A stretch of DNA of 64,000 bases, taken from the IMG/VR virus record IMGVR_UViG_3300030012_002620. One strand, written 5' to 3'. The notes beneath the pieces were generated by a model. That model ran no database searches. It was not told where the DNA came from and saw only the letters and a list, made by a program, of their open reading frames with translations. Below, in pieces: positions 333 through 63,798 of this stretch; the first letter of the stretch is position 1, and the number at the start of each line of letters is the position of its first letter. Origin of the DNA: an uncultured virus (IMG/VR IMGVR_UViG_3300030012_002620). Taxonomy: Duplodnaviria > Heunggongvirae > Uroviricota > Caudoviricetes > Crassvirales. A program made the translations under genes and the position numbers.

Positions 333-2529
333 CACTAAATTTTTATATCATGTCTGGCACAGATTATTGAACAACAATATATCTGGTCTATCATATACAC
401 AAAAAAAGTTTTTAGAACACATAATGAAACAATGTGTAATAAGCAATACTATTGATGTGAACTCAGTTGGATTATCTGTAATGCAAATACAAAAAGATAT
501 AAGCAATTACATTTATAACTTGCATTGCCTTGCAAATCTCAAATTTGGCAACATATTACCCTTTGCTACATATGAGAATTTCAATTATAAAATGGTAAAT
601 CCTGCAACAAATACACTTCGTATTCAAAAATTTATCCGTATTGCATGCCAACATATTCTAACTGAACGTGAAATCAGAAAAGAAACCAAACATTGGGAAT
701 CAGCAGTTGGTGAACAAATCAAAAACACAGACATTGACAGAGGTTTTTGTCGCTATTGGTCAAAAAAGATATTAATATTTCAATATCGACTATACAAAAC
801 ATTGACTAAAAATGCACAACAAATTGTTCATCTTGCAGAACCAAAAACATACTTTCAATCAAGACGTGCAAGACTTGACAATGATTTCTATATGTATCGA
901 ACAAAATCCAGAAACGTAACAATACACGAACAACCTTTATATGTTGGAGAACAATGCACCGCTATTCTAGGTTATGACACATATATGCAGAATCATCTAT
1001 CATGGTCAAATATATTCCATCAACAACCAACAATCAACAGACTAATATCTGAAACATTGCTACAAGATATCACAAACGCACTTAAAGGTGCGATAGACAG
1101 CTGTCCAGAAAAAATCAAAAAAGACAAAAAGAGGTTTGAAATATACAAATTCAATGCGAGTCTAATGCAAGAGTTTGCAATGCACAGCTCAAGATTACCT
1201 GCTGACCAATCACTTGACAGACACTTCACAATCAACAAAGAAGGTCAAATGTCATACAGTCCAGCAAAAAAACCTACATACATGACATCAAATGGTAACT
1301 GGCTATCTGGTGCAGAACGTATGATAACTAAATTTGGCAAAGGTGTAAGAAAATTATTTGCAACATACCCAGATACAATTGAAGAAAGTATCATTGAACA
1401 TATATGCAATCAACTAAAAGCTAAACATACGTTTGCAGCTGAAATGGTTGTTGTATCTGGTGAAGATATACGTCATTGGTATCATGAAAACAATACAAAT
1501 TATACAGTCAATACAGGTACACTTGCTGGTTCATGTATGCGTTATGATAGATGTCAACCATACCTTGATATATATGTAGAAAATCCTGACAAAATAAAAA
1601 TGCTAATATGTCGTGATAATGATAAAATTATTGGCAGAGCATTACTATGGCATGATGATAACGGTGACAAAGCTTTCATGGACAGAATATACGGTGCTGA
1701 CAAAACAATTGCTGCTTGTAAATCGTGGGCTAGTAAAAATGGTTATCTATACAAAAACAATCAATCATACAGAGATAAATCAGAATTCATAACAACAACA
1801 GGTCAACTTGTTGACAGACAATTTATAATAACACTAAACAAACCAACATCAGCACAGTTCCCATACGCTGATACTATGGCACGTATGATTATTGACGGAG
1901 ACTTTCTCAAAGTTACAAATCAACCTCACGACGCTTTTGACAACTGCTTTATTCTTGATATAACTGGTGGCAGGTTATATGGATATGGTGGCAATACACC
2001 TCCACCACGCAGAACAAATCTGAGTCATCCAGATATGGGTTGGCAAAGCGAAGATGATGAAGATACAATAATATTTCACAATGGTGAATATCATATGGAC
2101 GAATGTGGTTATTGCGAACACTACGACGGTTGGTTTCATGAAGATGACTTATGCTATGTAGAATCAGACAATTGCTACTATCACTCTGACCAATGCTACT
2201 GGGTTGGTGATTACGCATTTTACAACGACGGTAGTTACGACTGTCACGTTTGGTCAGAATGTGAAGATGAAAACTTATGGACTGATGACGCATACAGTAT
2301 TGCAGATTCAAATTATGAGCACATGGACTATTGTAGTGCAGAAAATTGTTTCTACTCTGACTATCATGGTGTATCATTCCACGAAGAAGACGCATTCTAT
2401 TGTCCAGTCACAGAAGATTACGAACACGTAGACAACACAAAAGAAATAGAAATTGACGGTACAACATACGAGGTTGCAGACTTCTGTAGCTATGATGACG
2501 TAGAAGAGTATCACTATAATAATAACTAA
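271..2529 (+). CDS. Large early protein with a conserved phage domain (possibly GNAT/PcfJ-like) and C-terminal Cys/His/Asp/Tyr-rich repeats
   Basis: 752 aa ORF. SCMRY..YLDIYVENP..IIGRALLW..FMDRIYG motif, then repeats such as YCEHYDGWFHEDD, YSDYHGVSFHEED, YCPVTEDYEHVDN. The ORF is solid; the function is a guess. Confidence 0.55.
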   Translation: MNKINQIKTTNSRGLSPLSRNTKFLYHVWHRLLNNNISGLSYTQKKFLEHIMKQCVISNTIDVNSVGLSVMQIQKDISNYIYNLHCLANLKFGNILPFATYENFNYKMVNPATNTLRIQKFIRIACQHILTEREIRKETKHWESAVGEQIKNTDIDRGFCRYWSKKILIFQYRLYKTLTKNAQQIVHLAEPKTYFQSRRARLDNDFYMYRTKSRNVTIHEQPLYVGEQCTAILGYDTYMQNHLSWSNIFHQQPTINRLISETLLQDITNALKGAIDSCPEKIKKDKKRFEIYKFNASLMQEFAMHSSRLPADQSLDRHFTINKEGQMSYSPAKKPTYMTSNGNWLSGAERMITKFGKGVRKLFATYPDTIEESIIEHICNQLKAKHTFAAEMVVVSGEDIRHWYHENNTNYTVNTGTLAGSCMRYDRCQPYLDIYVENPDKIKMLICRDNDKIIGRALLWHDDNGDKAFMDRIYGADKTIAACKSWASKNGYLYKNNQSYRDKSEFITTTGQLVDRQFIITLNKPTSAQFPYADTMARMIIDGDFLKVTNQPHDAFDNCFILDITGGRLYGYGGNTPPPRRTNLSHPDMGWQSEDDEDTIIFHNGEYHMDECGYCEHYDGWFHEDDLCYVESDNCYYHSDQCYWVGDYAFYNDGSYDCHVWSECEDENLWTDDAYSIADSNYEHMDYCSAENCFYSDYHGVSFHEEDAFYCPVTEDYEHVDNTKEIEIDGTTYEVADFCSYDDVEEYHYNNN

Positions 2530-11937: not shown

Positions 11938-14900
11938 GAACTTTTCCTTTTTCTTTTTGCTCCTCTAAAGTTTCCCAGTATCTAGACATTTCAACTTTCA
12001 TTAATGGATCAGGCTGATCACCAGGCGTTCCACTCACAGGAGATTTTGCAGTTGTAATATATCTTTCTATTCCTCTTTCCATTCTATCTAAATATCTAGT
12101 TATTTCTGCTGCAGGACCTGTTGGAACTGCTCCAGTTGCTACTAAAACTCTCAGCATAGCAAGCATTCCTATGCTATTATCTAACTTTTGATTAATTAAT
12201 TCGTGACCGTATCCCGCGTACTGTGTTACGTTAATACCAGGAGGAACAGTTTTTAGTATCTTGTTTTCTTCTAATAAATTGAGCGCGTCTATAACTTTTT
12301 CTGATTGATCTAACGCTATACCAAATAACCCTAAATTTTCTCTAATAAAAGCACCTGCTTTTTGAGTAGTGGTTAATTTATCATTAAACAAATCTTCAGA
12401 TAAATATTCTAAAAATATTGGCTCATCAGTTAAACCTGCTTCTTGCGACACATAATTTATAAGAGAATAAACTCCAGAATTTACAGCACCTGGGGTTGGT
12501 AAAGGGTTAAATGTAGAAATCATATCTTGCACTACAGCCTGCATTACATTGTTATTTTTTGGTGTTAGATTTACTTTATTAGTATATGTCTTACCAAACT
12601 CTATAATATCATCAATAGCCATAACTGCGTCATCTCCCACCATACCTCTCATAGATGCTTTAACATATGCATTTAAAGCTTCTACAGACTCCATGTTTGC
12701 TGCAGTCACTCCTTCTTTATCTAATTCTTCTCTAAAGTTTTTCATAAACTCAGCGTCTGATAAAGGAAGCATGACTTCAGATATCATCATATTCAAACCT
12801 CCGTATCTTTCTATTTCTTCTTCGCTGAACCCAAATAAAACTTCAGGTAGTGTGCCATATAAAGTTGCAGCCATAGTAACTTTTAAAGCTTGGAATGTTC
12901 CTACCTCTAACATTAATCCCTGCATTTTTCTATTAGCTTCCTCTCTTTGTTCTTGTGGAACATTAGGATCATTTGCTATAGTATATTGAGTCCAGAAATT
13001 GGTTTTAGCATTTAATCCAAACTTAGCATAAGGGAATATAGTTCTTATGGTATTTTTTACAAGACCTGATTGGCTTTGCTTGTATATACCAGCTTCAGAT
13101 AGTTCGTTTGACGGTCTCATAACTTCTTTTATAATGCCATCTGCATAATTAATAGCCCCTATGTCGGGATTTTCATTTTCTTTTTTCCACCACTCCATTC
13201 TTCCTTTAGCATCTCCAGGATACTTGGAACCATTTTTAATTTTGTAATCTAAATAATGTGCTTCAAATGATGCATTAGCAGCAGCTTTATCCGCTCTTGC
13301 TAAAAATACTTCTAATGCAAGCTCAGAGTTTTGTTGCATTCTGTTTAGAATTGCATCAAATGTATACGAGCCACTTATACCAAACTTAATAAATGTAGTT
13401 TCAGGTATACCAAAAGTGTTTGCATAATATGAAACATCTCTTTTAGTTGTTTTATCTAAAGGTAACTCTGCTGTAATAGCATTTCTTAATGAAGTTTGTG
13501 ATTTAGCATATATGTTTGACTTATCACCTTGACCGAATAAATCTTGTATAAACTTAGTTGCGTAACTTTTTGCTTTAGTTCCATTACTAGCTTGAGATAA
13601 ACCAAAGATAAACAACCCACTTTTACCTTGTAAAAAAGCTCTTGCTTCAGGAGAGTTTACTCTCATCATATTGTTTCCTATTGCACTGTAATACTGTTGT
13701 GTTGGCTGAGTTAAACTTGCTAAAGCTGTAGCAGAACCAACTGATAGTATAGTACTTGCTGTTTCATTGAACTTTTTACCAAAAGTTGTTTGTTTACCAA
13801 AGAAATTATTATCTCCATAATCAGTATATGGGTTTCTTCCTTTGTTAACTTCTCCATTAAATGTTTTCAAGAACTCATCACCAAATAAACTTTTAAAAGT
13901 ATTAAAATCATTTTCATTACTGAATTGCTTTTTAAACAGTGGATTGTTAAACAAATTATATAATGTCATTACATCCTGTCTTGCTGTTGCATCTAAATCT
14001 GAACCTTTAAGTGAGTGAAAAGAATTTTTCATGTAATCACCAAGGTTTAATCTCATACCTTCAGCTATATAACTATCAGGAACAGTAGCATATTGTAAAG
14101 AACCAGCTGTTGACCATCTTCCAGCCTTGTTAGCCGTAGGGTCTTCATATTGCATTTCATCTAATACACTAGCGTCTAAATCATTAGGTATTACAAACAA
14201 AGGCATGTAGTTGTCAAAGTTTTTCCACTTTTGTCCAAAACCTCTAACTCTAGCACGAGCAGCATCTTCTCTTTCTGCATAAATGCTTCTAATTCTTTCA
14301 ACCACATCTACGTTATGCTGACTAGCATTAGGTAGTATGTCTGAATAATTAGCAGCTTCTACTAATTTTAGTTTGTCGACAACAGCTTGTAAAGCTTCAT
14401 ATCTACCCTTATAAGTTCTTTTATCTTTACCAGAACTATTTTCGTACTCTTTTTTTCTTAGTTCTAATTCTTCTAAAATATTTCTTTTGTATCTATTAAA
14501 TTCACCATTAGGGTCTGGCGCATCTCTATCTATTCTACCAAGTCCTGAAATAATAGACATTTCATAATCATCTTGTAGCGTTACTGGTCTACGTTCTGGA
14601 ATTAGTTTAAAACTAAAAATTGATCTCCTTGTAGTGCTCTTACCTCTACCTACGTTATAAATGTCTAAGAGCTCATTATATAGACCTTGGTTTCTTAAGT
14701 TAACTTCTGCTTCTTTCTGTAGTATATTTTCATATAAATTAATAAATGGAGCTGCAATTCTTTTATCTCTAATCAAAAGGTTTTTAAGGATATCTAAAGT
14801 TGCAATATTCTTTTTACTTACATTGCCTTTATTAAATATTTTAAATCCAGTATAGTCACCAGCGTACATTTTTAATATAGGATTCATGGCTCCACTTGGG

Positions 14901-17900
14901 AATATATCTATAGGAGCAGATAATTGACTTGATATATCTACTGCAATTCCATACGCATCTATTATAGCATTTACTCTTTGTATAGGGAACCTTCCTTTAT
15001 CAATAGTAAGTATATTTTCTTGTGTTGTATTTAATGTTTCAAAAAACTTAATTAAAACTTGCTTGTCGCCTAGAGGTAAGTTTGCTAAAAGCTCATTGTT
15101 GCCAAGCTCATTGTATTTAGAAATCTTACTAAGTATAGACTCAATATCTTTTTTCAAATCTAAATCTACATTGTCTATGGTAATTTTACCTGTGTCTTGG
15201 TCTACTTCACCTGACGTAGCTTCCAAACTAGAAACAGCATCTAATAACCTGTCTGCTCCTAACTTCATTTGTTCATTTAAATCAAACTCTCTGCTAAAAT
15301 TAGGATCTATTTCCATATCATAAACATCTTTTGGATTTTGGTTTCCAAACCCTGGAGCAGGTATGATGTCTAATGGTATGTTCTCTATATTCTCATTTTT
15401 TAAAAGCTCAATGTCGTTTAAATATAACTCAATAGCTTTATCTTCTATTTTTTGTGCAAATTCTTCAGTATTTGTTTCGTTTCCAGACTTATCTGTTACT
15501 ATTAAAGGTCCCCCCATTTCTGTTTCTTTTACCTGAAACTCATCATCATTCATAACTTCTCTATAAGCAGCGTCTATGTATTTAGCTTTATCATCAAATG
15601 GTAAAAATTCAAAAGCGCCTTTTGAACCAACACCATTCACTATTTTTGTTAGTTCGCCTTTCATTCTAGCTATGTTTTCAAACGCAGCTTGTTTTGATGC
15701 TTGCGGGAGCCCATCATTGTTTACTACAGCTTCTGCTTCGGATATATCTCTAAGCAAATCAACAAACCTAATCTTATCTTCTTTGCTTAAATTAGCTACT
15801 AAATCAGCTCTGTTTGTTTCTATGGTTTCTATTTCTGTTTTTAAACCAGCTGTGTAGTCTGTAGCCCACTTGAAAAAATTACTTGACTCTATTTCTTTGT
15901 CTGTTTTTCCTTCTTCTTTTTGATTTTTAACATACGTTGCTAAAGCCTGGTCTATATTTATTTTTTGGTCTACTAAAGTATAATAGTTGCCATTACCTAT
16001 ATTGTTTTCAATAGTTAAATTAACATGAGCATCTAAAACAGAATTTCCTTTTAACCTTACTGCAGCAGCCATACCTGTCGAAGAAAATGCTGTAGTGTAT
16101 GTAGTGTTTTTTAATTTGTTTGCTAATTCTTGTCGATCAAACTCTCTGATACCCATAGCTGATTCGAATACATACTGCCATAAAGCTATACCATTCTCTT
16201 CTAAATTTTCATAAACTAAAGCCTTTCCTTCTATACCCCACAACCTATTCAATTGATTATGGAATCCTTTATCAAACCTAAATCTAAAATCACTTGCTAA
16301 TTTTTTTATACTTTCTTGTGTTTTTAATTCTGGATTTATTTTACCTCTTTTTAAAAAGTCAAAGCTTTTAAAATACCTCATGGTAAACAAAGCAGTAAGC
16401 GCAGTTTCAATACTTGCGTTACCACCAGCTAAAGCTCTAAGCTTCCAATCAGAAGAATCCATCATGTTAACTTCTGCTTGAGTCATAGATATACCAGCAT
16501 TTTCCATATTGACTAAAGACTCTCTTTGCCTTCTAAAATCATACAAGTTTTCACCATAAGAATTCAAACCAACCATAGCAACACCTAATTTAGGATTTGC
16601 CATGAAAGCTGCAATATATGGTGTTGATGAAGCAAAAGGCTCGTTAGCTAAAAATAAAAACTCACCTAAATCATCAGCGTTACGTATTTCTGTAGACCAC
16701 TCTGGTAAATATTGTTTTCTTAGTCTTTCTGCATTTCTTTTATCAAAAACAGAACCTAAACTTAACATAGGTAAGCCTCCATAACTAAAAATACTTGGGG
16801 TGCTTAAAAAAGGTTCTGGAACACCTATTGTTCTTAATACATCATTACCTATTTCTTTTACACTACCACCTATATCAAGTAACTCTATACCTACACCTTG
16901 TAAAAAGTTTTCTCCCCACTCATAGCTTAAGTCCAGGTAGTTTGTAAATTTATTTTTATAACCAAACAAACCTTTAAAATTTGTTTCGTTTCTTTCTAAT
17001 AAAGCCTGGGCTCTTTCTATAACAGGTTTTAAAACACCATAATCATCTGGATTACCTACTTTAATATCGATTTCTCCTAACCTAGCTTCACTGTTTAATG
17101 ATGGGTCTGTAACTATATTATATAATTCGTTATATGTAGAAGGTCTTCCATCTATTGTTATACCTTCTGAAGGGTAATGATCTTGAACGTTCATTCCCAT
17201 TTGCTCTAGAAATTGAAAACTCATTAAAGCAAGCTCACCTTCCAAAGGAATGCTTTTGTAATTATCATTCATTCTCAAAGCAAAACCAGTATTCTTTGAA
17301 GCTGTGTTCATAGAATTCCTAAGTTCTTCTGCATAATAATCTAATACTTTTTCTATTATTGCTCTTTTTGTTTTCTTGTTTCCTTTCCCATCTACAAACA
17401 CATCATTTAATGATGCATTTCTATTCAGTATTAAATTCAAACCATCTAAACTATTAACGCCAAAATCAAAAGCAAACTGCATTTGCTCACTTAGATTACC
17501 TCTCATTGGGTTTATGTCAATCGTAGGAATTGAATATTCATCTTCAACAGACGTATCTTCCATGTTATTCAATTTTTCTCGAATTAAATTCAAGAACTGC
17601 ATAACTTTTTTTGGATCATATAAATTTTCTTGTGCCAAACTCTTGTTCATATCAAACATATCTTCTGGATTCATATTTACTCCTAAATCCTTGGCTAGTC
17701 TCACAATCATTCTGTTGTGAGATATGTTTAATTCTGTCATTTCATAGAAATGATCTCTTAAAACAAATAATTTATTTTCTTCATTATTAGAAAACTCGTA
17801 TCCTAAATTTGTAATAGGCGAAGCGTCTGATGCAGCTGCCCCCATGTTTAATTTAAACTCAGTCAATTCTTTTGTATAAAACTCTGGTCTAATAATAGTT

Positions 17901-35765: not shown

Positions 35766-37991
35766 TTATGATATAATTTTACTAACAAATCCTTTATTGT
35801 TATATCTTGCAAAGTTAAGATTTATTTGATTATCTTTTTTGTGAACAACTTTTTGTGTAGAAAAGTTAGCCATAATAGCAAAACCTGAACTTACAGTAGC
35901 ATCGAAGCGTGTTCTATTATTAATATCGTAATTAGACCAATCTAAAAGAGTTCGATTAAAAAACATATTTCCACAAGACCCAAAATCAATATCATCATCA
36001 TTTGTTACAACTCCTACGTGGTTCTGAATATATGCTTCTATATACTCTGCATGAGCTGAAATTACAGCAGATGATGACGGAATACCACCTAATTCTTTTT
36101 CTGCCTTAGAAAGCACGTTTTTGTGTTTATCTGGCCTGTTTAATGAGAATGCTCTATATCCTCTTTCTTTTAAATAATATAAAAGTCTTGGTTTGTTATT
36201 TTCCACTAATATTGGCATACCATAAAAATGTAAAGCCATTAAAACATCCTCGTAGAAAATTTCTGCTGTTGGAGGTCTTGATATGTATTCTAAGAAAAAA
36301 GAGTTTGTAGGCCCTTCTTCTAAATGAAACTTAGTCATACCATGTAAAGAACCTTTAGAACCACTACCTTGTACAGTTCCAGATATATCATAAGAGTCAC
36401 ATCCAAAGCTTCCCAGGTGTGCATTGCCTGGTATTTTTCTAACTCCTTTATGTATTACGTTGTTAGCAAGCGATAAAGGCGGAGTCCAGCTAGTAAGAAA
36501 CCTACCATTATTATCAGGAACCCAAATAACTTCAGAATCTCTGACGCCGTTTTTCCAAACAAACGAACCTTTTGTAAGGTTTGTTTTGATAGCAAAAGAA
36601 TCATTGTAATCAATTTGTTCGTATATTTTTGTTAAGTTAAATATAGTGTTTTTAGATTCATCACGAAATGCATGTGACTCTGTTCTAGGGAATTGTCTAT
36701 AAAATTCATTTAAACCATCCTGGTCTTTTTTTAAACCTTCGACTTCATTTTCCCAATGGTTTATTACACCATTTTCTATTATGTCTCCATAAGGCCCATA
36801 AATTTCTTTTTCAGGATTGTCAAAAACAGGCATTCCATATTCATCTATAAAACCTTCATAGTTCCACTCCATAGGTATAAAAAACGAATATAATCCTGAG
36901 TTTGTTTGTCCATTTTTATTTCTTTCTAAAACATTAGAGTTTTCATAAAGCTTTTTAAAATTATCTCCTCCTTTGTCTAAAGCATTAGATGTAGAACCCA
37001 TCATACATTTACCTATGATTCTACTACCTAGTCTTAGTGTTGTTTTTGTAACTCTCCAGTTGTTTAATATATTGTCAGGTCTTTCCCATTTACCTGATTC
37101 ATCATGAACTAGTAGTTTTAATTTTTCTCCATCATAAGAGTTGTCTCCTGTGTTTTTCCAATCTATAGTGGTATCGAGTCCCGTGAGTTCCTCGGGTTTA
37201 TCGGTTGTGCTCGTGAGCTTCCTCCTTGTGAGTTTGGATGCTGGAACTCTATAGGCAAGTTCGGTCTTGGGTCTATCCATTCCATCCTGTATCGGTTTAA
37301 AAAAGAACGGATAATTGACCGATATTGGTACGACCTTATCTGTGAACATTTTTTTGGCATCAGCTCCAGATTTGGACAATATTCCGAATCGTGAATCGGA
37401 ACTAATTGTTGCTTGATTAACAACTTCTCCTGAGGCCATAAACGAAAATCCTGATCTACGGTTTTTAAGATAGCACATACCATAAGACCTTTCGTCAGCC
37501 TTACAGGCTTCCCAGAAAATGAAGAATAATCTATTTGCTTCCCTAAAGTCTGGGTTCCCGACATCAATCTTACTCCACTGCAAGTACATATAGTGAGTGC
37601 CAGTAATATAAGTAGCAACACCTTTATTATAAAACCAAAACCCCTGCTCTCTTTTAATAAATTCATCTTCTATATAATCTATATATTTATTTTTAAAATC
37701 TTCTGGATAGTCTCTCCAGTCAAATATTGTTTTTATTCTATTTAGTTCCTTTGGGTATGGAGTAACTTCCCATTTATTCTTTTCAAATCTATGTATTTTT
37801 TTTGGTTGTTTTGGTAAAGCTATCCTTAGGTTCTGTATTTGATATATATCACCAATCATGCCTGTTTTAGATATAACTACAACATCATACTCTTTATTAT
37901 ATCCGTATTTCCACTTTTTAGACTTGTTTAGTTTTTTAATAACATCAAAATCTATTGGAGTTACTTTAGCAAATAAACTTTGTTCATACAT
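35766..37991 (-). CDS. terL: Terminase large subunit
   Basis: Walker A-like KNRRSGFS, Walker B LLVHDESGK, MMGST coupling motif, nuclease GCDSYD, ENNK, FDA. Confidence 0.92.
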   Translation of the reverse strand: MYEQSLFAKVTPIDFDVIKKLNKSKKWKYGYNKEYDVVVISKTGMIGDIYQIQNLRIALPKQPKKIHRFEKNKWEVTPYPKELNRIKTIFDWRDYPEDFKNKYIDYIEDEFIKREQGFWFYNKGVATYITGTHYMYLQWSKIDVGNPDFREANRLFFIFWEACKADERSYGMCYLKNRRSGFSFMASGEVVNQATISSDSRFGILSKSGADAKKMFTDKVVPISVNYPFFFKPIQDGMDRPKTELAYRVPASKLTRRKLTSTTDKPEELTGLDTTIDWKNTGDNSYDGEKLKLLVHDESGKWERPDNILNNWRVTKTTLRLGSRIIGKCMMGSTSNALDKGGDNFKKLYENSNVLERNKNGQTNSGLYSFFIPMEWNYEGFIDEYGMPVFDNPEKEIYGPYGDIIENGVINHWENEVEGLKKDQDGLNEFYRQFPRTESHAFRDESKNTIFNLTKIYEQIDYNDSFAIKTNLTKGSFVWKNGVRDSEVIWVPDNNGRFLTSWTPPLSLANNVIHKGVRKIPGNAHLGSFGCDSYDISGTVQGSGSKGSLHGMTKFHLEEGPTNSFFLEYISRPPTAEIFYEDVLMALHFYGMPILVENNKPRLLYYLKERGYRAFSLNRPDKHKNVLSKAEKELGGIPSSSAVISAHAEYIEAYIQNHVGVVTNDDDIDFGSCGNMFFNRTLLDWSNYDINNRTRFDATVSSGFAIMANFSTQKVVHKKDNQINLNFARYNNKGFVSKIIS
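35810..35817 (-). promoter_or_regulatory. TAnnTTTG promoter element inside the 3' end of terL
   Basis: TAACTTTG about 50 nt upstream of the portal start. Confidence 0.4.
37163..37666 (-). CDS. Putative lipoprotein overprinted in the +1 frame of terL
   Basis: ATG start, signal peptide MNLLKESRGFGFIIKVLLLILLALTICTC-S, 167 open codons, local terL codon shift that avoids +1 stops. Confidence 0.6.
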   Translation of the reverse strand: MNLLKESRGFGFIIKVLLLILLALTICTCSGVRLMSGTQTLGKQIDYSSFSGKPVRLTKGLMVCAILKTVDQDFRLWPQEKLLIKQQLVPIHDSEYCPNLELMPKKCSQIRSYQYRSIIRSFLNRYRMEWIDPRPNLPIEFQHPNSQGGSSRAQPINPRNSRDSIPL

Positions 37992-38614: not shown

Positions 38615-39175
38615 TTAATTTAAAATTGTACATATATCTCTTGTCATCATTCTGTATAGTTTTTCATTATTAATTTCAAACTCATACTCACTGTCTTTTC
38701 TAAAATTAACCTTACTTCCTTCTTCTACTCCAAGCTCCTTTAGTTTTTTGTTTGAATATATAACTACACCTGTATTTTCTTCTAAACCCTCTTGGTGTAA
38801 ATATTTGTTTTCTAATTCCATAGGTTTTACAAAACAATAATTATCTACTGAACGCCACTTATTTCCATCGTGATATAAATAAAATTGATATGGATCTATT
38901 ATGTATATGTCCCCTTTAAAATAATTAGGAGACTTCCTTGGTCTACCTTTCATGTCATAATATATTCTAAATACATTATGATGAACAACCAACGTGTCTC
39001 CTTTCTTTATTTCTCCTTTGTAGTGTGATGGGGTTTCTATAACCTCTGCAAACCTATTGACATGCATATGGTTTGATAAATCGCTGTTCACAATCATTTT
39101 CTGACCAGCAAGCTCTATTTCGTTATTGTAATGTGTTCCTTTGGCTTTTATTAAAAAATAAAAAGGGGATTTCAT
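38615..39175 (-). CDS. Tandem GroES-like domain protein
   Basis: Two GroES-like halves: AEVIETP..IKKGDTLVV and FVKP..TGVVIY..VEEGSKVNF..EFEINNEKLYRM..DI. Confidence 0.6.
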   Translation of the reverse strand: MKSPFYFLIKAKGTHYNNEIELAGQKMIVNSDLSNHMHVNRFAEVIETPSHYKGEIKKGDTLVVHHNVFRIYYDMKGRPRKSPNYFKGDIYIIDPYQFYLYHDGNKWRSVDNYCFVKPMELENKYLHQEGLEENTGVVIYSNKKLKELGVEEGSKVNFRKDSEYEFEINNEKLYRMMTRDICTILN

Positions 39176-40617: not shown

Positions 40618-42219
40618 TTAACATCCTAAAGGTGAGAAATTGGACACGTATCCACTACTATTTACAAAGTAGAAACCAGCACTTGTAGCACCACTACTAC
40701 TAGCAGGTGGACCAGCATACCAACCAGAGTTTGTTATTACATTTAAATTATTATCATATATTCTTGTTCCATTACCAAATGTTCCTGTAAATCTAATAAT
40801 AGTATTCATTGTTTGGAAACATGCAAAGAAACCTTTTGAATAAGGTCCAGCAGCATATCTAGTTACATATGATGTGCTAGTAGCTTGTGTTATAGTAGAT
40901 CCATAAGAAGTTCCAACACTGTTTGTAGCAAAAGCTCTATAATAGTATGTTGTTGATGAAGATAAACCAGTAACAGCCCTACTGTAACTACCTGTTGTGT
41001 TAAATGTTCCTGGGTGTTGAGATACTTTTGTAACATTAAACTCACCTATTGTAGGTGTGCTATCACTACTTGAATACACAAATCCTTTGTCAGTTATAGT
41101 AGCATTTCCAGTACTAGTCATATTACCATTCATTGTCATACCATTAGAACTTACACTTGTAGCTGAAAGACTAACAATACCTGGAGCTGTAGATGAGGAT
41201 AATGTTGTGACTTGTTCGTTAGCACCATATGTAGTTCCAGCTGAATTAGTAGCGTACGCTCTGTATGTGTATGTAGTTGAACTGCTTAATGCACTAATAG
41301 CTTTACTAAAGGTCCCTGTAGCGTTTGTGTTATCAGCAAGCTGCACACCAACTCCACTTTCACCTGCAATAAAATCATCTGTTATAGCACCTGTTTTAGT
41401 AACAAAACCTCTATGCGTAATAGTTCCATCACTGCTAAAATCTGAAGCAAGTCCTTTACTATTAACAGTACCATTCATTGTAAAACCACTTTGACTAACG
41501 CTAGACTCTGTGTTTGTAACAACTGTTGGGGCTACACCAGTACCTCCACCAATAACTTGATTGCCTGGGCAACTAACACTAAACCACCAACCTGTACCAC
41601 TAAGAGGAGCAGATACTCGCATATTAGAAGAACTAACGGAGCTATTTTTATTAAACGTTATAGTACCTCTACCACCACTTTGAGTGTTTAAGTTATCTGT
41701 ACCATAATCAGTTGTTAGTGTTGTTATTTCTAAATTAGAATCACCAGTAGCTGCTCTTAAATTAGCTAAACTACTTTGTGCACCAACGTAGCCATCGTAA
41801 TTACCACTAGTAGTACCACTCGTATAAGTATTACCATTCCATGTAAACACAAATTTATCAGGAATACCAAAAGCTTGAAACTCTATAGTAACAGTACCAG
41901 TATTACTTCCTAAGTTTATAGGATAATCAAAGGTACCTTGACCTCCATCATGATAAGCTAAGTTACAAGCTGGTGCCGCGGCATCATGATCATAACTATA
42001 AAATTCACTCATTGCAAAAGGAGCAGCATTGTTTGGATGTGATGCGCTAAGACCATTTGTTGGATCAGCTACAAAATGATTACCATTAGCATTACCACCA
42101 ATAGTTAAATCTTTTAAACTTAAGACATCATCATAGTCAGCATCAGTGTAGTCATCTACATCTTTTTCTGCCGCTAAACCAGCTAAACTTATACTATTAC
42201 CGCTTGCAGGAACTGCCAT
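40618..42219 (-). CDS. Tail-tip/adhesin protein with two FN3-like repeats
   Basis: LSSSTTYTYRAYATNSAGTTYG and LSSSTTYYYRAFATNSVGTSYG repeats. Confidence 0.7.
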   Translation of the reverse strand: MAVPASGNSISLAGLAAEKDVDDYTDADYDDVLSLKDLTIGGNANGNHFVADPTNGLSASHPNNAAPFAMSEFYSYDHDAAAPACNLAYHDGGQGTFDYPINLGSNTGTVTIEFQAFGIPDKFVFTWNGNTYTSGTTSGNYDGYVGAQSSLANLRAATGDSNLEITTLTTDYGTDNLNTQSGGRGTITFNKNSSVSSSNMRVSAPLSGTGWWFSVSCPGNQVIGGGTGVAPTVVTNTESSVSQSGFTMNGTVNSKGLASDFSSDGTITHRGFVTKTGAITDDFIAGESGVGVQLADNTNATGTFSKAISALSSSTTYTYRAYATNSAGTTYGANEQVTTLSSSTAPGIVSLSATSVSSNGMTMNGNMTSTGNATITDKGFVYSSSDSTPTIGEFNVTKVSQHPGTFNTTGSYSRAVTGLSSSTTYYYRAFATNSVGTSYGSTITQATSTSYVTRYAAGPYSKGFFACFQTMNTIIRFTGTFGNGTRIYDNNLNVITNSGWYAGPPASSSGATSAGFYFVNSSGYVSNFSPLGC

Positions 42220-52734: not shown

Positions 52735-52869
52735 TTATCTGCCTTGGCCTCTATATCTCTTTTGGTAGTTTTTGCTACTCACGCATTTTGAAGTCTTTGT
52801 TTTTGCGTGAACACCTGGTCTTTTCTTTTTCTGCGCTTTTACGTAAGGCTTATAAATTATCTTAGCCAT
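52735..52869 (-). CDS. 44-aa basic protein ending YRGQGR (absent from the ORF track)
   Basis: MAKIIYKPYVKAQKKKRPGVHAKTKTSKCVSSKNYQKRYRGQGR*; TAATG overlap. Confidence 0.75.
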   Translation of the reverse strand: MAKIIYKPYVKAQKKKRPGVHAKTKTSKCVSSKNYQKRYRGQGR

Positions 52870-53183
52870 TACTTTTTTAACTCATACACAACCTCTTGTA
52901 TATCACTTCTGTTTAATGCCAATTTGAAATCTAAACCTGCTTGAAAGGTTCTTACAATTTTTCCGTCTTTTTCTATTAATATTACAGGAACAGATTTAAT
53001 TTGACTTTTAAGTTTAGGACCCTGGTCTTCTAACCAAGCGTAATCATATTTACAACCTCTTAAGTCTTCAAGATATACTGTATTTTTTTGATTCCACTTA
53101 GCATTGATTTGAACTACTCTAATTTGTTGGCTATAGCTTGTATAACTAAAAAATAAGAATAGAATTATAATTAAATTTCTCAT
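52869..53183 (-). CDS. Secreted thioredoxin-like protein lacking CxxC
   Basis: Signal peptide; VVQINAKWN and IKSVPVILIEKDGK (cis-Pro motif). Confidence 0.6.
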   Translation of the reverse strand: MRNLIIILFLFFSYTSYSQQIRVVQINAKWNQKNTVYLEDLRGCKYDYAWLEDQGPKLKSQIKSVPVILIEKDGKIVRTFQAGLDFKLALNRSDIQEVVYELKK

Positions 53184-53488
53184 CTTTTATAAACTTTATC
53201 TTCTATTTTATTTATTCTTTCTTTATTATCTAAAATGTCTTCTTTAAGTACGTCTGTTGATTTTTCTATTTGTATAATAGTGCTTCTGACAAGTTCATCT
53301 TTTAATTGAAATTCCATTTTTTGTACAAACTCATCACTGCTAAAATTATCTACTTTATTATTGAGGTCTTGTATTTCACCCTGTAAAGTAAACCACATGC
53401 TGGCAATAGCTACTGTTCCTGCCACCAACATTCCTATTGTTTTTAAATCTAGTTTTACTTCTGTTTCTTCGCTAATTTTTTTTGCCAT
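53180..53488 (-). CDS. Single-TM coiled-coil protein (i-spanin/holin-like)
   Basis: One N-terminal TM plus coiled coil, inside the lysis cassette. Confidence 0.5.
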   Translation of the reverse strand: MAKKISEETEVKLDLKTIGMLVAGTVAIASMWFTLQGEIQDLNNKVDNFSSDEFVQKMEFQLKDELVRSTIIQIEKSTDVLKEDILDNKERINKIEDKVYKR

Positions 53489-53511
53489 GGTTTTTTATTT
53501 TATGTTCACAA

Positions 53512-53973
53512 TCATTGTTTTTTAAAAATACTCGTTGCTTTTTCTGTCGTCCTTCCTCCGAAATAAGCTAGAACAACGGCCATCATAACTTTTTCAAAAG
53601 TATCATTCCATGTAACACCAATATTAAAAGGTATTGACTCTACGCTATCTAATATTCCTGCTAATGAAAAAATAGTTATACACCAAACTAAAACCAAAGG
53701 ACGTACATTCTTCGAAAGCCATGAATCTGATGCGGCGTCTGCTTGCCACCTGTTGGTTATAGATTCAATCTCCTTGTTTTGTTGTTCGTAAATTAATTGT
53801 TGTAATTTTATTTTATCTTCATTACTTACATCAGATTTTCCAATTGCTGCAATTGCTTCTTTTGGACTTGTAACACCTTGTAACACGCTTCCAAGAGTTG
53901 GGTTTATCATTCCAGCAGCTCCTAGCAACAATTTACCTACAGTTGTATTTTTAAACTTTTTCTTGTCGCTCAT
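53512..53973 (-). CDS. Holin (3TM type)
   Basis: RWQAD..SDSWLSKNVRPL..AYFGGR motif; coupled to the endolysin. Confidence 0.72.
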   Translation of the reverse strand: MSDKKKFKNTTVGKLLLGAAGMINPTLGSVLQGVTSPKEAIAAIGKSDVSNEDKIKLQQLIYEQQNKEIESITNRWQADAASDSWLSKNVRPLVLVWCITIFSLAGILDSVESIPFNIGVTWNDTFEKVMMAVVLAYFGGRTTEKATSIFKKQ

Positions 53974-54431
53974 ATTACCATGTATTTAGTTTTTCCATCT
54001 TCTTTATATGCTTTCAAACACCTGTTTCTGTTTTTTTGTGCATCTACATATGATACATGAACCCAGGATGGGTTTTGATCTGTTCCAAATTCCCATATCA
54101 TTTGATCATAATCAAGATTTGCTTTGATCCAGTCAAACATAGCCGCATTTGAAGCGTGACCATAAACATCATCAATATCTATCGCTTGACCTTTACAATG
54201 CTGAGATTTTGTAGAACCTCCTATAGCTTTGTTAAGTTCTGGTGATCTATAAAAAGAATTTATCTTTATAGGTCCGCCCACCCAATCCCTCAAAGGTTGA
54301 AAAATCATTTCAGCTACAGTCATCATATTTCCAAGATGTTCATCTGTAGGCGTGTTGTCTATTCCTCTCCTCTTTGCTGTTTCAGAATGGATAGCTTCAT
54401 TGTACGATACGTTTTTTGACAATTTATCCAT
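53970..54431 (-). CDS. Endolysin, peptidase M15A
   Basis: INSFYRS.ELN.AIGG...SQHCKGQAIDID and WVHVSY motifs. Confidence 0.9.
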   Translation of the reverse strand: MDKLSKNVSYNEAIHSETAKRRGIDNTPTDEHLGNMMTVAEMIFQPLRDWVGGPIKINSFYRSPELNKAIGGSTKSQHCKGQAIDIDDVYGHASNAAMFDWIKANLDYDQMIWEFGTDQNPSWVHVSYVDAQKNRNRCLKAYKEDGKTKYMVI

Positions 54432-55002: not shown

Positions 55003-55308
55003 TTATTTTTTTTCAGTTAATTTATATAGCCTTTCATCCATTTTTAACAATCGTTCTTTTATTTCACCAACATCTTCTTTAACAGAATTTACATCTAATT
55101 GTATTTTTTCTACCGTGCTTCTAACTAATTCGTCTTTGTATTGCAACTCTATTGAGCTGACTTCTGGTTCTGGCAACTCTTTAGCCTCTTGTATTTGAGC
55201 TTGAAGACTAAAATATGTTCCTGCAAACATTATTGTTCCAAATATCATAATACCTATTGTTCCTAAATCTAATTGCACTTTAGTGTTTTGACCTATTTTC
55301 GTCGCCAT
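55003..55308 (-). CDS. Single-TM coiled-coil protein, paralogue of 53180-53488
   Basis: Shared LDL.TIG, LQ..IQ and KDELVRST motifs. Confidence 0.65.
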   Translation of the reverse strand: MATKIGQNTKVQLDLGTIGIMIFGTIMFAGTYFSLQAQIQEAKELPEPEVSSIELQYKDELVRSTVEKIQLDVNSVKEDVGEIKERLLKMDERLYKLTEKK

Positions 55309-59721: not shown

Positions 59722-61329
59722 TTAATTTTTATTTATTTCTTCTTTTTTTATTCTTTTATTTGATACAACGCAAGATGTAGTTAAAATTACACCAGCAACA
59801 GAGGCAGCATTCAAAACTGCGTTCTTTGTTACTTTAAATGGATCAATAATTCCAGCTTTATACATATCGCTGAATTTTTTGTTTTTTACATCATACCCAT
59901 AGTTCAATCTACCTGCCATACAAATTTTATAAACAGGCTCTGAGCTTTCTCCTGAATTTTCAACTATCTTCCTGAATACATCAGAAAGCGCATCAAATAC
60001 TATATTATAGCCTACCTTGAAAGAATCGGAAGAGCTTCGAGGGGCTTTTTTGCGATTTTTTTTCTTGGTGGCGTTTAATAGAGCTGCTCCTCCACCAGCA
60101 ACTATACCTTCTTCTAAGGCTGCTTTAGTTGCATGGATGGAATCATCTACCCTATCTTTCTTTTCTTTAAGTTCTACATCAGAGTTACCTGCTAATTTTA
60201 TAGTAGCTACACCTCCAGCTAGTTTTGATAATCTATCTTTCAGATGCCACTTATCAGATTTATTCTTTGTAAGCTTAATTTCATTGGTTAGCCATTCTAT
60301 TGTTTCTAGCTTTTTTGGGTTTTCTTCTCCTTCGAACACCAAAATTGTCTCATTTATGTCTGAAATCATGGTTTTACACGTTCCAAGGTAGCTAGAATCT
60401 ATATTTTGTGCTGAATCACCAGATAATTCTGAAATTATACGAGCTCCTGTCATCAAACACAGGTCTTCAAGTAATTCAAACCTCTTAATTCCTATTCCTT
60501 CTGGTGTAATAAAGTTTGCAGTTAAGTTTTTCTTGTTAATATTCTGTGTAATGAACAATTTTACCCTATCATCAAGCTCAGAAATGATTAAAAGTGGTCT
60601 TTTTTGCTTAATTGACTGTTCAAAAGCAAAATGTAGTCTTTCGTGCATGTCAATTTTAGTGTCACTTATAACAATTAGAGGATTTTGAAACTCAACTGTA
60701 CGTTTTCTAAGATTATTGACGGAAAAAGGAGTGCCATACCCTCTTTTTATACGTGTTCCATTAGTTATTTCGGTATAATCCTCGTTTGTGGAGGACTCAT
60801 CCATAGTAACTACCCCATCTTTACCTACTTTATTGTAAGCGTCTGCTATCATATTACCTAAATACGTGTCTCCATTTGCTGAAATCGTCGCTACTTCTAC
60901 TAGACTAGCTTCGGTGACGTCTTTTTTGTTTTTTTCCAAAATTGACACCACATCTTTTGCAGCTTGTTCTATACCTTCTTTAGCTTGAGTAACATTATCT
61001 ATTGTTTCAACTTGGTCAAAACACCTATCTATGATCGCTTTTGCTAAAACACACGACGTAGTTGTACCATCTCCAGCTTCTGTCGCTGTTTTTTGAGAGG
61101 CCTGACGTAAAATACTAACCCCTAAGTTTTCTACAGGGTCTGATAATACTATACTGTTTGCAACAGTTACTCCATCTTTAGTTACATGGGGGGTTCCAAA
61201 TTGGTCTTCGATAATTACTGTTCTACCAGAAGCTCCAAGAGTGGAGGCCACAGCTTCAGCTAATATATCAATACCTTTTTTTAGGTTATACCTACCTTCA
61301 GAACCGAAGGATATGTTCTTTTCTATCAT
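59722..61329 (-). CDS. groEL: Chaperonin GroEL
   Basis: VTKDGVTVA, AGDGTTT, ATISANGD, EEGIVAGGG, GIIDP.KV motifs. Confidence 0.96.
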   Translation of the reverse strand: MIEKNISFGSEGRYNLKKGIDILAEAVASTLGASGRTVIIEDQFGTPHVTKDGVTVANSIVLSDPVENLGVSILRQASQKTATEAGDGTTTSCVLAKAIIDRCFDQVETIDNVTQAKEGIEQAAKDVVSILEKNKKDVTEASLVEVATISANGDTYLGNMIADAYNKVGKDGVVTMDESSTNEDYTEITNGTRIKRGYGTPFSVNNLRKRTVEFQNPLIVISDTKIDMHERLHFAFEQSIKQKRPLLIISELDDRVKLFITQNINKKNLTANFITPEGIGIKRFELLEDLCLMTGARIISELSGDSAQNIDSSYLGTCKTMISDINETILVFEGEENPKKLETIEWLTNEIKLTKNKSDKWHLKDRLSKLAGGVATIKLAGNSDVELKEKKDRVDDSIHATKAALEEGIVAGGGAALLNATKKKNRKKAPRSSSDSFKVGYNIVFDALSDVFRKIVENSGESSEPVYKICMAGRLNYGYDVKNKKFSDMYKAGIIDPFKVTKNAVLNAASVAGVILTTSCVVSNKRIKKEEINKN

Positions 61330-63578: not shown

Positions 63579-63650
63579 GGCCCTTTCGTCTAATGGTTAG
63601 GACGTTACCCTTTCACGGTAAAAATAGTGGTTCGATTCCACTAGGGGCTA
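63579..63650 (+). tRNA. trnE: tRNA-Glu (TTC)
   Basis: Acceptor GGCCCTT/AGGGGCT, D arm GTCTAATGGTTAGGAC, anticodon arm TTACC-CTTTCAC-GGTAA, T arm AGTGG-TTCGATT-CCACT; CCA not encoded. Confidence 0.93.
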
Positions 63651-63798
63651 CAATGCGTAATCACCTTGAGTTCAATTACGTATAGTCAATAATTTAGGCA
63701 ACACCAATTAAGAACGTTGTTGATTGGAAAAGGTCAGATTGAGGGTATCAGTTGCCTTTATTATTGCATTTAACTAACAAATTGTTTATATTTATATT

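Follow-up and report, generated by a model that had tools for sequence, protein, structure and literature searches.

The terminase large subunit gene (terL) of an uncultured tailed phage is open in a second reading frame over 167 codons, and comparison with related genes indicates that a marine terL lineage keeps this +1 frame open and steers its synonymous codons accordingly. The gene lies in a 64-kb phage genome segment assigned to the Crassvirales (IMG/VR record IMGVR_UViG_3300030012_002620; 64,000 nucleotides), which we call the window and to which all coordinates refer. The predicted product of the second frame starts with a short basic segment, continues as a Leu-rich helix with C-T-C-S-G at its end, and finishes in a hydrophilic, disordered tail. 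On the evidence presented below, the open reading frame (ORF) is probably a real, translated gene, overprinted on terL, for a protein that is exported or membrane-anchored and has a disordered tail.

An open reading frame nested in terL

The window has a GC content of ~33% and contains replication genes, giant structural proteins, the portal, terL, a lysis cassette and a GroEL/GroES pair. The same stretch is found, as DNA contigs, in marine metagenomes from 10 studies. The elements at the center of this analysis are as follows (aa, amino acids; GC3, GC content at third codon positions).

35766..37991, minus strand: terL, terminase large subunit, 741 aa, matching PHROG 6681 (E 3e-169, residues 22-738)
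37163..37666, minus strand: nested ORF, 167 codons plus TAG, ATG start, wholly within terL in the +1 frame
37664..37666, minus strand: ATG of the nested ORF, formed by the terL codons GAT GAA, with a +1-frame TAG two codons upstream
37574..37621, minus strand: hydrophobic core VLLLILLALTI followed by C-T-C-S-G, residues 16-31, predicted signal peptide or membrane anchor
37166..37573, minus strand: hydrophilic tail rich in P/Q/R/S/T, residues 32-167, predicted to be disordered, fast-evolving
37137..37631, minus strand: terL segment with elevated GC3 and CpG, codons ~121-285, read here as the footprint of the second reading frame

The nested ORF begins 325 nucleotides (nt) from the terL start, an offset that places it in the +1 frame. 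Along the 741 codons of terL this frame contains 45 stops; the longest stop-free run is 168 codons and the next longest is 58. Sixteen Leu, Ile or Val codons in the span are at risk of creating a +1 stop, being followed by a codon that starts with A or G, and all sixteen are in stop-proof forms (ATT and CTC four times each, GTT and GTC three times each, CTT twice). In 21 other genes of the window, CTC accounts for only 1.1% of Leu codons and GTC for 5.1% of Val codons. Where NTA codons do occur in the span, the next base is always T or C, until ATA GAT ends the +1 frame. The codon choice is also visible in base composition: GC is 0.435 at 37100-37399 versus ~0.30 in the surroundings, GC3 is 0.39 in the span versus 0.19 in the remaining terL, and 17 CpG dinucleotides occur in the 507 nt of the span versus 19 in the remaining 1719 nt. 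The nested ORF is the sole same-strand nested ORF of at least 100 aa in the window; the other alternative-frame ORFs, of 104-148 aa, all lie on the strand opposite to their host genes. Antisense ORFs of 114-148 aa are found within large genes at 12549-12989 (+), 17376-17720 (+), 41057-41494 (+) and 1949-2395 (-).

Several of these features had been described in an initial annotation, made from the letters of the window and a list of its ORFs. The 167-codon ATG ORF that it placed wholly inside the +1 frame of terL is confirmed at 37163..37666 on the minus strand. The rare-codon pairs that it listed (GTC GTA, GTC AAT, CTC ACA, CTC ACG twice, and CTC GAT) are all present, every NTA codon in the span agrees with its statement that GTA and ATA precede only pyrimidines until ATA GAT, and its GC- and CpG-rich patch at about 37160-37440 corresponds to the values given above. 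The translation likewise matches its description of a basic N-region, a hydrophobic stretch, CTC-S, three more Cys and a Pro-rich tail (7 Pro in the last 38 residues).

Chance does not account for the open frame

We asked if the ORF could be no more than an unusually long alternative-frame ORF of the kind expected by chance in a 64-kb AT-rich genome. The other alternative-frame ORFs of the window, at 104-148 aa, would speak for this possibility, but all of them are on the opposite strand, and the nested ORF has no same-strand counterpart of at least 100 aa. Using the codon usage of the window, the analytic probability that all 16 risky sites stay stop-free is 5.1e-8. In 1000 synonymous permutations within the span, the mean was 3.9 stops and no permutation reached the observed value of 0. 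Resampling from the codon usage of the rest of terL gave 8.9 expected stops in the span, again versus 0 observed. The permutation test is calibrated, as 5.0% of 159 control terL windows gave P<=0.05. Within-span permutation keeps the rare codons and the GC content and yet gives 3.9 stops. Chance is excluded as the explanation. Furthermore, the open frame recurs in 36 further diverged sequences, in which synonymous sites are largely randomized (codon identity ~0.5 at conserved residues). Pure chance, to which we give next to no credence, is refuted by the permutation and analytic tests and by the test on related genes described below, as far as sequence statistics allow.

Distribution and history of the open frame

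The terL gene has more than 600 matches in IMG/VR, of which the best 80 (67-74% amino-acid identity) form our main set. Seventeen of these 80 homologues have no +1 stop at all across the span of the window's ORF. Allowing each ORF its own end, we defined a carrier as a terL gene in which the +1 frame is open over the hydrophobic segment plus at least about 115 further codons. The 81 rows, window included, then comprise 31 carriers (ORFs of 146-259 codons), 7 rows open in the tail only, and 43 closed rows. Adding 22 terL genes from longer records gave an extended ingroup of 103 rows, which are not a random sample; 37 of them keep the open frame (146-259 codons). Three partial terL genes, L179, L180 and L190, were excluded from the tree and the state tallies, so records G011, G015 and G024 were dropped.

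When codons were permuted within the carriers' own ORF spans, 127.9 stops were expected in the 31 carriers and 0 were observed (worst per-row P 0.018). Depletion of +1 stops, which had been named as a check on the nested gene, is thus present in the carriers. Homologues with at least seven +1 stops fit the null expectation. Over the core, carriers average 0 stops in the +1 frame, 11.2 in the +2 frame, and 5.3, 7.1 and 11.3 in the three antisense frames. A local rise in GC3 is seen in every zero-stop homologue and in none of the closed ones, and stop count correlates with regional GC3 at -0.75. In closed rows the regional GC3 equals that of the remaining gene, and this includes closed sisters of carriers (L007 compared with L005). 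As these sisters are already without the patch, the raised GC3 is upheld by selection for the second frame.

The frame is absent from the outgroups Elemovirus, Cellulophaga phi19:3 and phi38:1, and Tenacibaculum Gundel_1 (32-41% identity), and also from MW202828 (63% identity); each of these has 7-13 +1 stops in the region. No carrier was found among cultured relatives. In an outgroup-rooted tree built from terL columns outside the overlap, carriers occupy the basal grades of a 101-row clade (Shimodaira-Hasegawa-like approximate likelihood ratio test support 96). The frame is closed in a derived clade of 48 rows (support 97), where six tail-only rows resemble remnants. Closed rows are also scattered among the carriers, and well-supported branches force at least eight state changes. 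The simplest reading of this pattern is a single origin after the split from the closest outgroups, followed by many losses, and many losses imply that the nested gene is an accessory gene. The comparison of carriers with closed rows indicates that, once the frame is lost, the region drifts to AT-rich codons and gains stops.

Two terL genes, L167 (record G005) and L177 (record G014), have shortened nested ORFs of 137 and 110 codons, respectively. In both the start, the helix and CTCSG or CTCNG are intact, with four stops beyond, and the genomes also bear canonical lipoproteins. These shortened ORFs may be gene-replacement intermediates, remnants or shorter functional forms.

The double-coding region has also left a trace in protein databases, where 43 entries match the +1 product. 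Of 13 that were examined, ten are pure +1-frame products of 168-253 aa, and three (P0012, P0037 and P0043) are chimeras that switch between terL frame 0 and +1. Gene callers are evidently confused by this region. The chimeras might instead reflect programmed ribosomal frameshifting from terL, which would fuse the first 110-140 TerL residues to the helix and tail; in 15 of the 31 carriers the +1 frame is indeed open further upstream, to columns 68-120. However, in 16 of the 31, window included, the ATG is preceded by a +1 stop at a distance of one or two codons, and in all carriers an ATG closely precedes the helix. No slippery motif was seen in the window sequence by eye, and the three chimeric entries resemble frameshift-tolerant gene calls or assembly errors. 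We consider frameshifting very unlikely and favor a nested protein whose translation would start independently, at the ATG of the nested ORF, on the late terL message.

Selection on the encoded residues

To compare codon choice in each alignment column, 18 zero-stop rows were set against 31 rows with at least seven stops. Over columns 141-160, the terL amino acids are alike in both groups (conserved ...TYITGTHYMYLQWSKIDVG...), but the codons differ, and those of the carriers are almost fixed.

terL Pro: CCT in 12/18 carriers, CCA in non-carriers; Leu instead of Gln in the +1 frame
terL Thr, three sites: ACT in 16, 18 and 16 of 18 carriers, ACA in non-carriers; Leu instead of Gln/His
terL Ile: ATT in 17/18 carriers, ATA in non-carriers; Leu instead of a stop
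terL Tyr: TAC in 18/18 carriers, TAT in non-carriers; Thr instead of Ile
terL Leu: TTG in 16/18 carriers, TTA in non-carriers; Cys instead of Tyr
terL Gln: CAG in 17/18 carriers, CAA in non-carriers; Ser instead of Asn

Several of these helix codon choices are unrelated to stop avoidance and select the Leu residues and C-T-C-S-G of the second frame; this column-by-column comparison is the strongest evidence of selection on the nested protein. Codon identity over the helix is 0.65-0.72 in carriers versus 0.53-0.62 in non-carriers. In the tail, T-ending codons are avoided and terL Ser moves from AGT to TCN; in the nested frame, V, L or I then give way to P, Q, R, H or S. The frequency of T at the third base in carriers is 0.62 over the helix and 0.2-0.33 in the tail, with the reverse trend in non-carriers. 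Hydropathy of the nested frame is 1.9/1.7 over the helix in carriers versus 0.9 in closed rows, and about -0.5 in the tail versus +0.3 to +0.9 in the same frame of closed rows. Pro makes up 6.3% of the nested frame in carriers and 1.4% in non-carriers. Such a hydrophobic-then-hydrophilic pattern would be expected of a signal or anchor followed by a soluble tail; a codon-rarity or GC signal would predict none.

The closest relative, record G016, shares 97% TerL identity with the window, and its nested ORF extends to 187 aa. The two differ at 95 of 507 nt inside the nested span and at 162 of 1716 nt outside it; terL third positions differ in 73 of 169 codons inside and in 142 of 572 outside. Despite these changes, the helix and CTCSG are the same and no stop was created. 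The comparison suggests that selection keeps the tail open and hydrophilic, whatever its exact sequence, and that the tail evolves quickly. Part of the raised divergence could also come from a recombination patch. In a DNA contig of 98.9% identity (X2), four variants are listed inside the ORF and none is a stop by hand translation, a number too small for a test.

An open frame may also persist untranslated, as a side effect of selection that acts on terL or directly on the DNA or RNA. It might, for example, reflect rare codons that slow translation while the ATPase domain folds, a signal for packaging or regulation, or recombination with GC-richer phages. The local GC3 and CpG patch fits such explanations, and so does the divergence from G016, which is ~2x higher here both at third positions and in amino acids, as a recombination patch would produce. 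When the span's own codons are permuted, however, the rare-codon cluster and the composition are retained, yet 3-5 stops arise per sequence, compared with 0 in 31 rows. Only one of the five alternative frames is open, no Rfam family is found in terL, and the flip from T-ending codons over the helix to C-, G- or A-ending codons in the tail is unlike a uniform codon or GC signal. An untranslated by-product is therefore improbable. The nested gene that the initial annotation had inferred to be real is strongly supported by the open frame in 37 of the 103 rows, the fixed codons of the helix and CTCSG, and the decay to a neutral state on loss.

The predicted nested protein

The protein begins with a basic n-region (K5, R8 and K15 in the window) followed by the h-region VLLLILLALTI, and both regions are kept in 31/31 carriers. 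Using the 31-sequence alignment, AlphaFold2 predicts a single helix at residues 6-35 (predicted local distance difference test, pLDDT, ~70-77) and assigns pLDDT <45 to all else. Copies of the protein are 142-226 aa long, with hydrophilic tails of 115-190 residues. An ATG is positioned upstream of the helix in 31/31 carriers, in 22 of them at alignment columns 123/124.

The window copy contains five Cys: C27 and C29 in C27-T-C29-S-G, then C64, C97 and C107. Cys27, Cys64 and Cys107 are forced by terL Met codons with T next, and they also appear in the corresponding frame of closed rows. Cys29 depends on terL using TTG for Leu and is selected in carriers (17/18); Cys97 depends on TTG as well and is present in only 10/18 carriers. 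Pro follows CSG in ~40% of copies (count of the nested sequences). A Pro directly after CSG counts against signal peptidase I cleavage at that site.

The residue at -1 is I or T at the first Cys and T at the second, whereas the lipobox consensus, as given in the available portion of Kongari et al. (2018; PMC6139136), is [LVI][ASTVI][GAS]C. Lipoproteins of related phages have S, G or A at this position. A canonical lipobox is impossible here, because terL encodes Tyr-Met-Tyr, which leaves no choice but Ile or Thr in front of either Cys. In carriers, Thr, the smallest residue that terL permits at -1, is fixed before the second Cys, and Ser after it. The lipobox had been called imperfect from the outset, and the canonical form is indeed found in 0/31 copies. 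The second Cys may carry a lipid, attached by way of the closest approach to a lipobox that the Tyr-Met-Tyr codons allow.

Lysis cassette and envelope lipoproteins

The candidate partners of an exported protein lie in the lysis cassette of the window, the span of which we took as 52869..54431 (minus strand; TM, transmembrane).

53970-54431, minus strand: endolysin, PHROG 894
53512-53973, minus strand: holin-like protein, PHROG 3427
53180-53488, minus strand: TM and coiled-coil protein, i-spanin-like, with a paralogue at 55003-55308 (minus strand)
52869-53183, minus strand: signal-peptide protein, 104 aa, overlapping the TM and coiled-coil gene at 53180-53488 by 4 nt

The coiled-coil, signal-peptide and holin families are core genes, present in 21-22 of 22 genomes (21/22 for both the i-spanin-like and the signal-peptide family). 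The two TM and coiled-coil paralogues flank the endolysin-holin pair. The coiled-coil protein and the overlapping signal-peptide protein may form a lipoprotein-free, envelope-spanning pair. No gene with a canonical lipobox is present anywhere in the window, lysis cassette included.

In contrast to the window, many of the 80 lysis loci scanned in relatives contain a true lipoprotein gene beside the endolysin, of a family that we named cl62 (in alignment A2, loci L092, L093, L096, L103, L107, L108, L112, L125, L126, L143, L144, L147, L156, L163 and L097). Its members combine a canonical lipobox (LSSC, LSGC, ITSC, VTSC and similar) with the conserved motif THVLAVTxEGDTLKLPI, in which V-L-A...G-D-T is invariant, and with a disordered, low-complexity Tyr/Asn/Pro tail of about 90 residues ending in PRKNN. 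The family has no counterpart in PHROG, and we propose it as a candidate lysis-cassette lipoprotein of marine Bacteroidota phages.

Presence of cl62 was scored by a local hidden Markov model search, which recovered 7/7 known positives. In records with both a terL state and an endolysin region, cl62 is found in 0/9 carriers and 10/18 non-carriers (one-sided Fisher P 0.005); G027-G029 and G031-G033, without an endolysin region, were left out of this table. In a gene-content association over 22 genomes and 479 clusters, only cl62 stood out (0/7 vs 7/15, P 0.05). The difference is larger for lipoproteins in general: among records of at least 50 kb, genes of at least 90 aa with a canonical lipobox occur in 0/8 carriers and 14/15 non-carriers (Fisher P 1.8e-5). 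Thirteen of the 14 were recognized by pattern and the fourteenth (G006), with Ala at -1, by homology. In the large closed clade, the lipoprotein is a lipobox-bearing variant of a core family, cl16, which elsewhere has an ordinary signal peptide. This family (~350 aa, motif KFSTFYAAVNGG) has a lipobox in G009, G020, G021, G022 and G025, which form a clade without the nested ORF or cl62; in G016 and others it has a hydrophobic N-terminus without a lipobox, and no homologous ORF was called in the window. The presence of the lipobox in one clade and of the plain hydrophobic N-terminus elsewhere indicates that cl16 toggles its mode of membrane anchoring.

Carriers are without a canonical lipoprotein gene, and non-carriers nearly always have one, often adjacent to the endolysin. 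This complementarity is the most useful clue to function: the nested protein would most likely fill the job of these lipoproteins, possibly at the outer-membrane step of lysis. Its N-terminal helix would act as a Sec signal or signal-anchor and place the tail in the periplasm or on the membrane, making the product a dispensable accessory protein of the cell envelope. A bolder reading, less likely than not, is that it stands in for the free-standing envelope lipoprotein of relatives, anchored either by lipid at the non-canonical lipobox I/T-C-T-C or by its signal-anchor. Its task would then be the outer-membrane step of lysis, or else exclusion, with its synthesis tied to DNA packaging, and relatives would have repeatedly swapped 'nested' and 'free-standing' solutions. 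In favor of the lipoprotein function proposed in the initial annotation, carriers lack a canonical lipoprotein gene and non-carriers almost always have one, often of similar build and next to the endolysin.

A more specific assignment is a displaced o-spanin, an outer-membrane lipoprotein that would pair with the coiled-coil protein at 53180-53488 or 55003-55308 at lysis. The build of the nested protein is similar, with an export signal, a Cys, and an unstructured Pro-containing tail with further Cys, although Pro accounts for only 6.3% overall. The i-spanin-like family is core in 21/22 genomes, and in the window it has no lipoprotein partner. Relatives without the nested ORF often have an endolysin-adjacent lipoprotein with a disordered tail (0/9 carriers versus 10/18), and carriers fix Thr at -1, the smallest residue terL allows, Cys at +1 and Ser at +2. 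On the other hand, the lipobox consensus in the available text of PMC6139136 is found in 0/31 copies. The nested ORF, at 37.2-37.7 kb, is 16 kb from the lysis cassette and from the i-spanin-like genes at 53.2-53.5 and 55.0-55.3 kb. Its product alone is 142-226 aa, and both spanins together average <=250 residues according to the same portion of that paper. In 8 of the 18 non-carriers, cl62 is missing as well as the nested ORF, and the signal-peptide protein at 52869-53183, core in 21/22 genomes, could be the partner of the i-spanin-like protein instead. We regard the o-spanin assignment as unlikely. The initial annotation had offered a displaced o-spanin or an exclusion or lysis-timing lipoprotein; either may hold, but the lipobox is missing in all 31 copies, the gene is not beside an i-spanin-like gene, and the protein is larger than typical o-spanins.

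Elsewhere in the window, a GroES-like protein (186 aa, PHROG 13932) is encoded at 38615-39175 (minus strand), just upstream of the terL region, and a GroEL-like chaperonin (PHROG 5725, E 2e-132) at 59722-61329 (minus strand). An Rfam scan of the whole window found one tRNA only and no match within terL; this single tRNA-Glu (anticodon TTC), called by both Rfam and ARAGORN, is near the window end at 63579-63651 (plus strand).

Observations that weigh against a nested gene and its proposed role

Several observations weigh against the nested gene or against the replacement of a lipoprotein by its product. In the tail, pairwise synonymous codon identity is 0.39-0.49 in carriers versus 0.50-0.59 in non-carriers. 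Suppressed synonymous variation, another check named at the outset, is thus seen over the N-terminal helix (0.65-0.72) and not over the tail, which is more variable than the remaining terL. With synonymous variation in the tail not suppressed, the constraint on most of the nested protein is limited to its open frame and its composition. The gene is absent in 66/103 relatives and so is dispensable. ATGs at columns 123/124 are common in non-carriers too, which makes the start codon weak evidence by itself. The window copy has no match in Pfam or PHROG, and the 31 aligned copies give only single matches with E 0.006 or weaker; in the ESM Atlas the best score, 0.81 (recognition 1848), is below the useful range. 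The sole metatranscriptome with matches (X20, share 0.13) contains contigs only, mostly <95% alike and on conserved parts of terL, and bins lacking RNA coverage do not imply silence. None of the 31 copies has the canonical lipobox [LVI][ASTVI][GAS]C.

For the proposed role, the complementarity between the nested ORF and lipoproteins is confounded by phylogeny: it reduces to four independent contrasts (sign test P 0.125). In three to four of these, cl62 is opposite to the nested ORF, and never in the same direction. The window and G016 are near-duplicates in this comparison. The lipoprotein-bearing records G005 and G014 keep shortened +1 ORFs (137 and 110 codons) with the helix intact. Furthermore, the lipoproteins of non-carriers belong to at least four unrelated families and thus need not share one function. 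A profile comparison of the nested protein with cl62 shows no relationship (hhalign probability 17%).

Discussion

The nested ORF resembles lambda Rz1, which is embedded in Rz, in being a phage gene on the same strand and in the +1 frame of its host gene. As far as the available text of PMC6139136 describes Rz1, the likeness extends to an N-terminal export signal with a Cys, an unstructured Pro-containing part with further Cys, and a partner family, here i-spanin-like, encoded in the same genome. The spanin architectures in that text are all defined relative to the i-spanin gene. The ORF studied here, in contrast, is hosted by terL and not by an i-spanin gene, 16 kb from the lysis cassette. 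Its product is without a canonical lipobox (T or I at -1), is 2-4x longer than Rz1, and has a fast-evolving tail without a conserved proline stretch.

The lysis protein E of phiX174 is a small membrane protein whose gene is overprinted on the scaffolding gene D, a late gene essential for morphogenesis. What is conserved in protein E resides in its N-terminal TM helix, and the basic tail behind the helix is under little constraint. The nested ORF is likewise an overprint in a late gene with a conserved N-terminal helix and a loosely constrained tail, but it occurs in a 64-kb double-stranded DNA phage of marine Bacteroidota-type hosts, and its product is ~2x as long. Because this phage encodes both an endolysin and a holin, it does not need a single gene that performs lysis alone. 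Closer to hand, cl62 is found in the same phage group and shares with the nested protein a signal, a Cys and a low-complexity disordered tail of 90-190 residues; its distribution is mutually exclusive with the full-length nested ORF (0/9 vs 10/18). It differs in having a canonical lipobox, a conserved motif, a Tyr/Asn/Pro tail and a gene of its own, and there is no sequence relationship between the two.

Novel overprinted proteins tend to be disordered, as the tail of the nested protein is predicted to be. Most documented overprinted genes are from small RNA or single-stranded DNA viruses. With overprinted viral genes in general, the subject of the reviews PMC8227390 and PMC6195259, the nested ORF shares a new frame in an older conserved gene, a restricted range, a biased composition and predicted disorder. 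Gene callers do not permit long embedded genes, which is why such genes hardly ever appear in the annotations of tailed phages. A full-text literature search turned up no report, in the text it covered, of a gene embedded in a terminase gene, which is not proof of absence.

If the reading put forward here is correct, an abundant marine phage lineage has a second gene of 500-780 nt inside the ATPase domain of terL. As terL is the most used marker gene of phage genomics, trees and codon analyses based on it can carry a hidden second layer of selection. The sister phages that lost the nested gene are natural controls for the cost and benefit of overprinting an essential enzyme. Should the nested protein indeed replace a lipoprotein, this would be the first example of a packaging gene with a lysis or envelope function nested inside it, and a test case for how far a lipobox may deviate under the constraint of a second frame.

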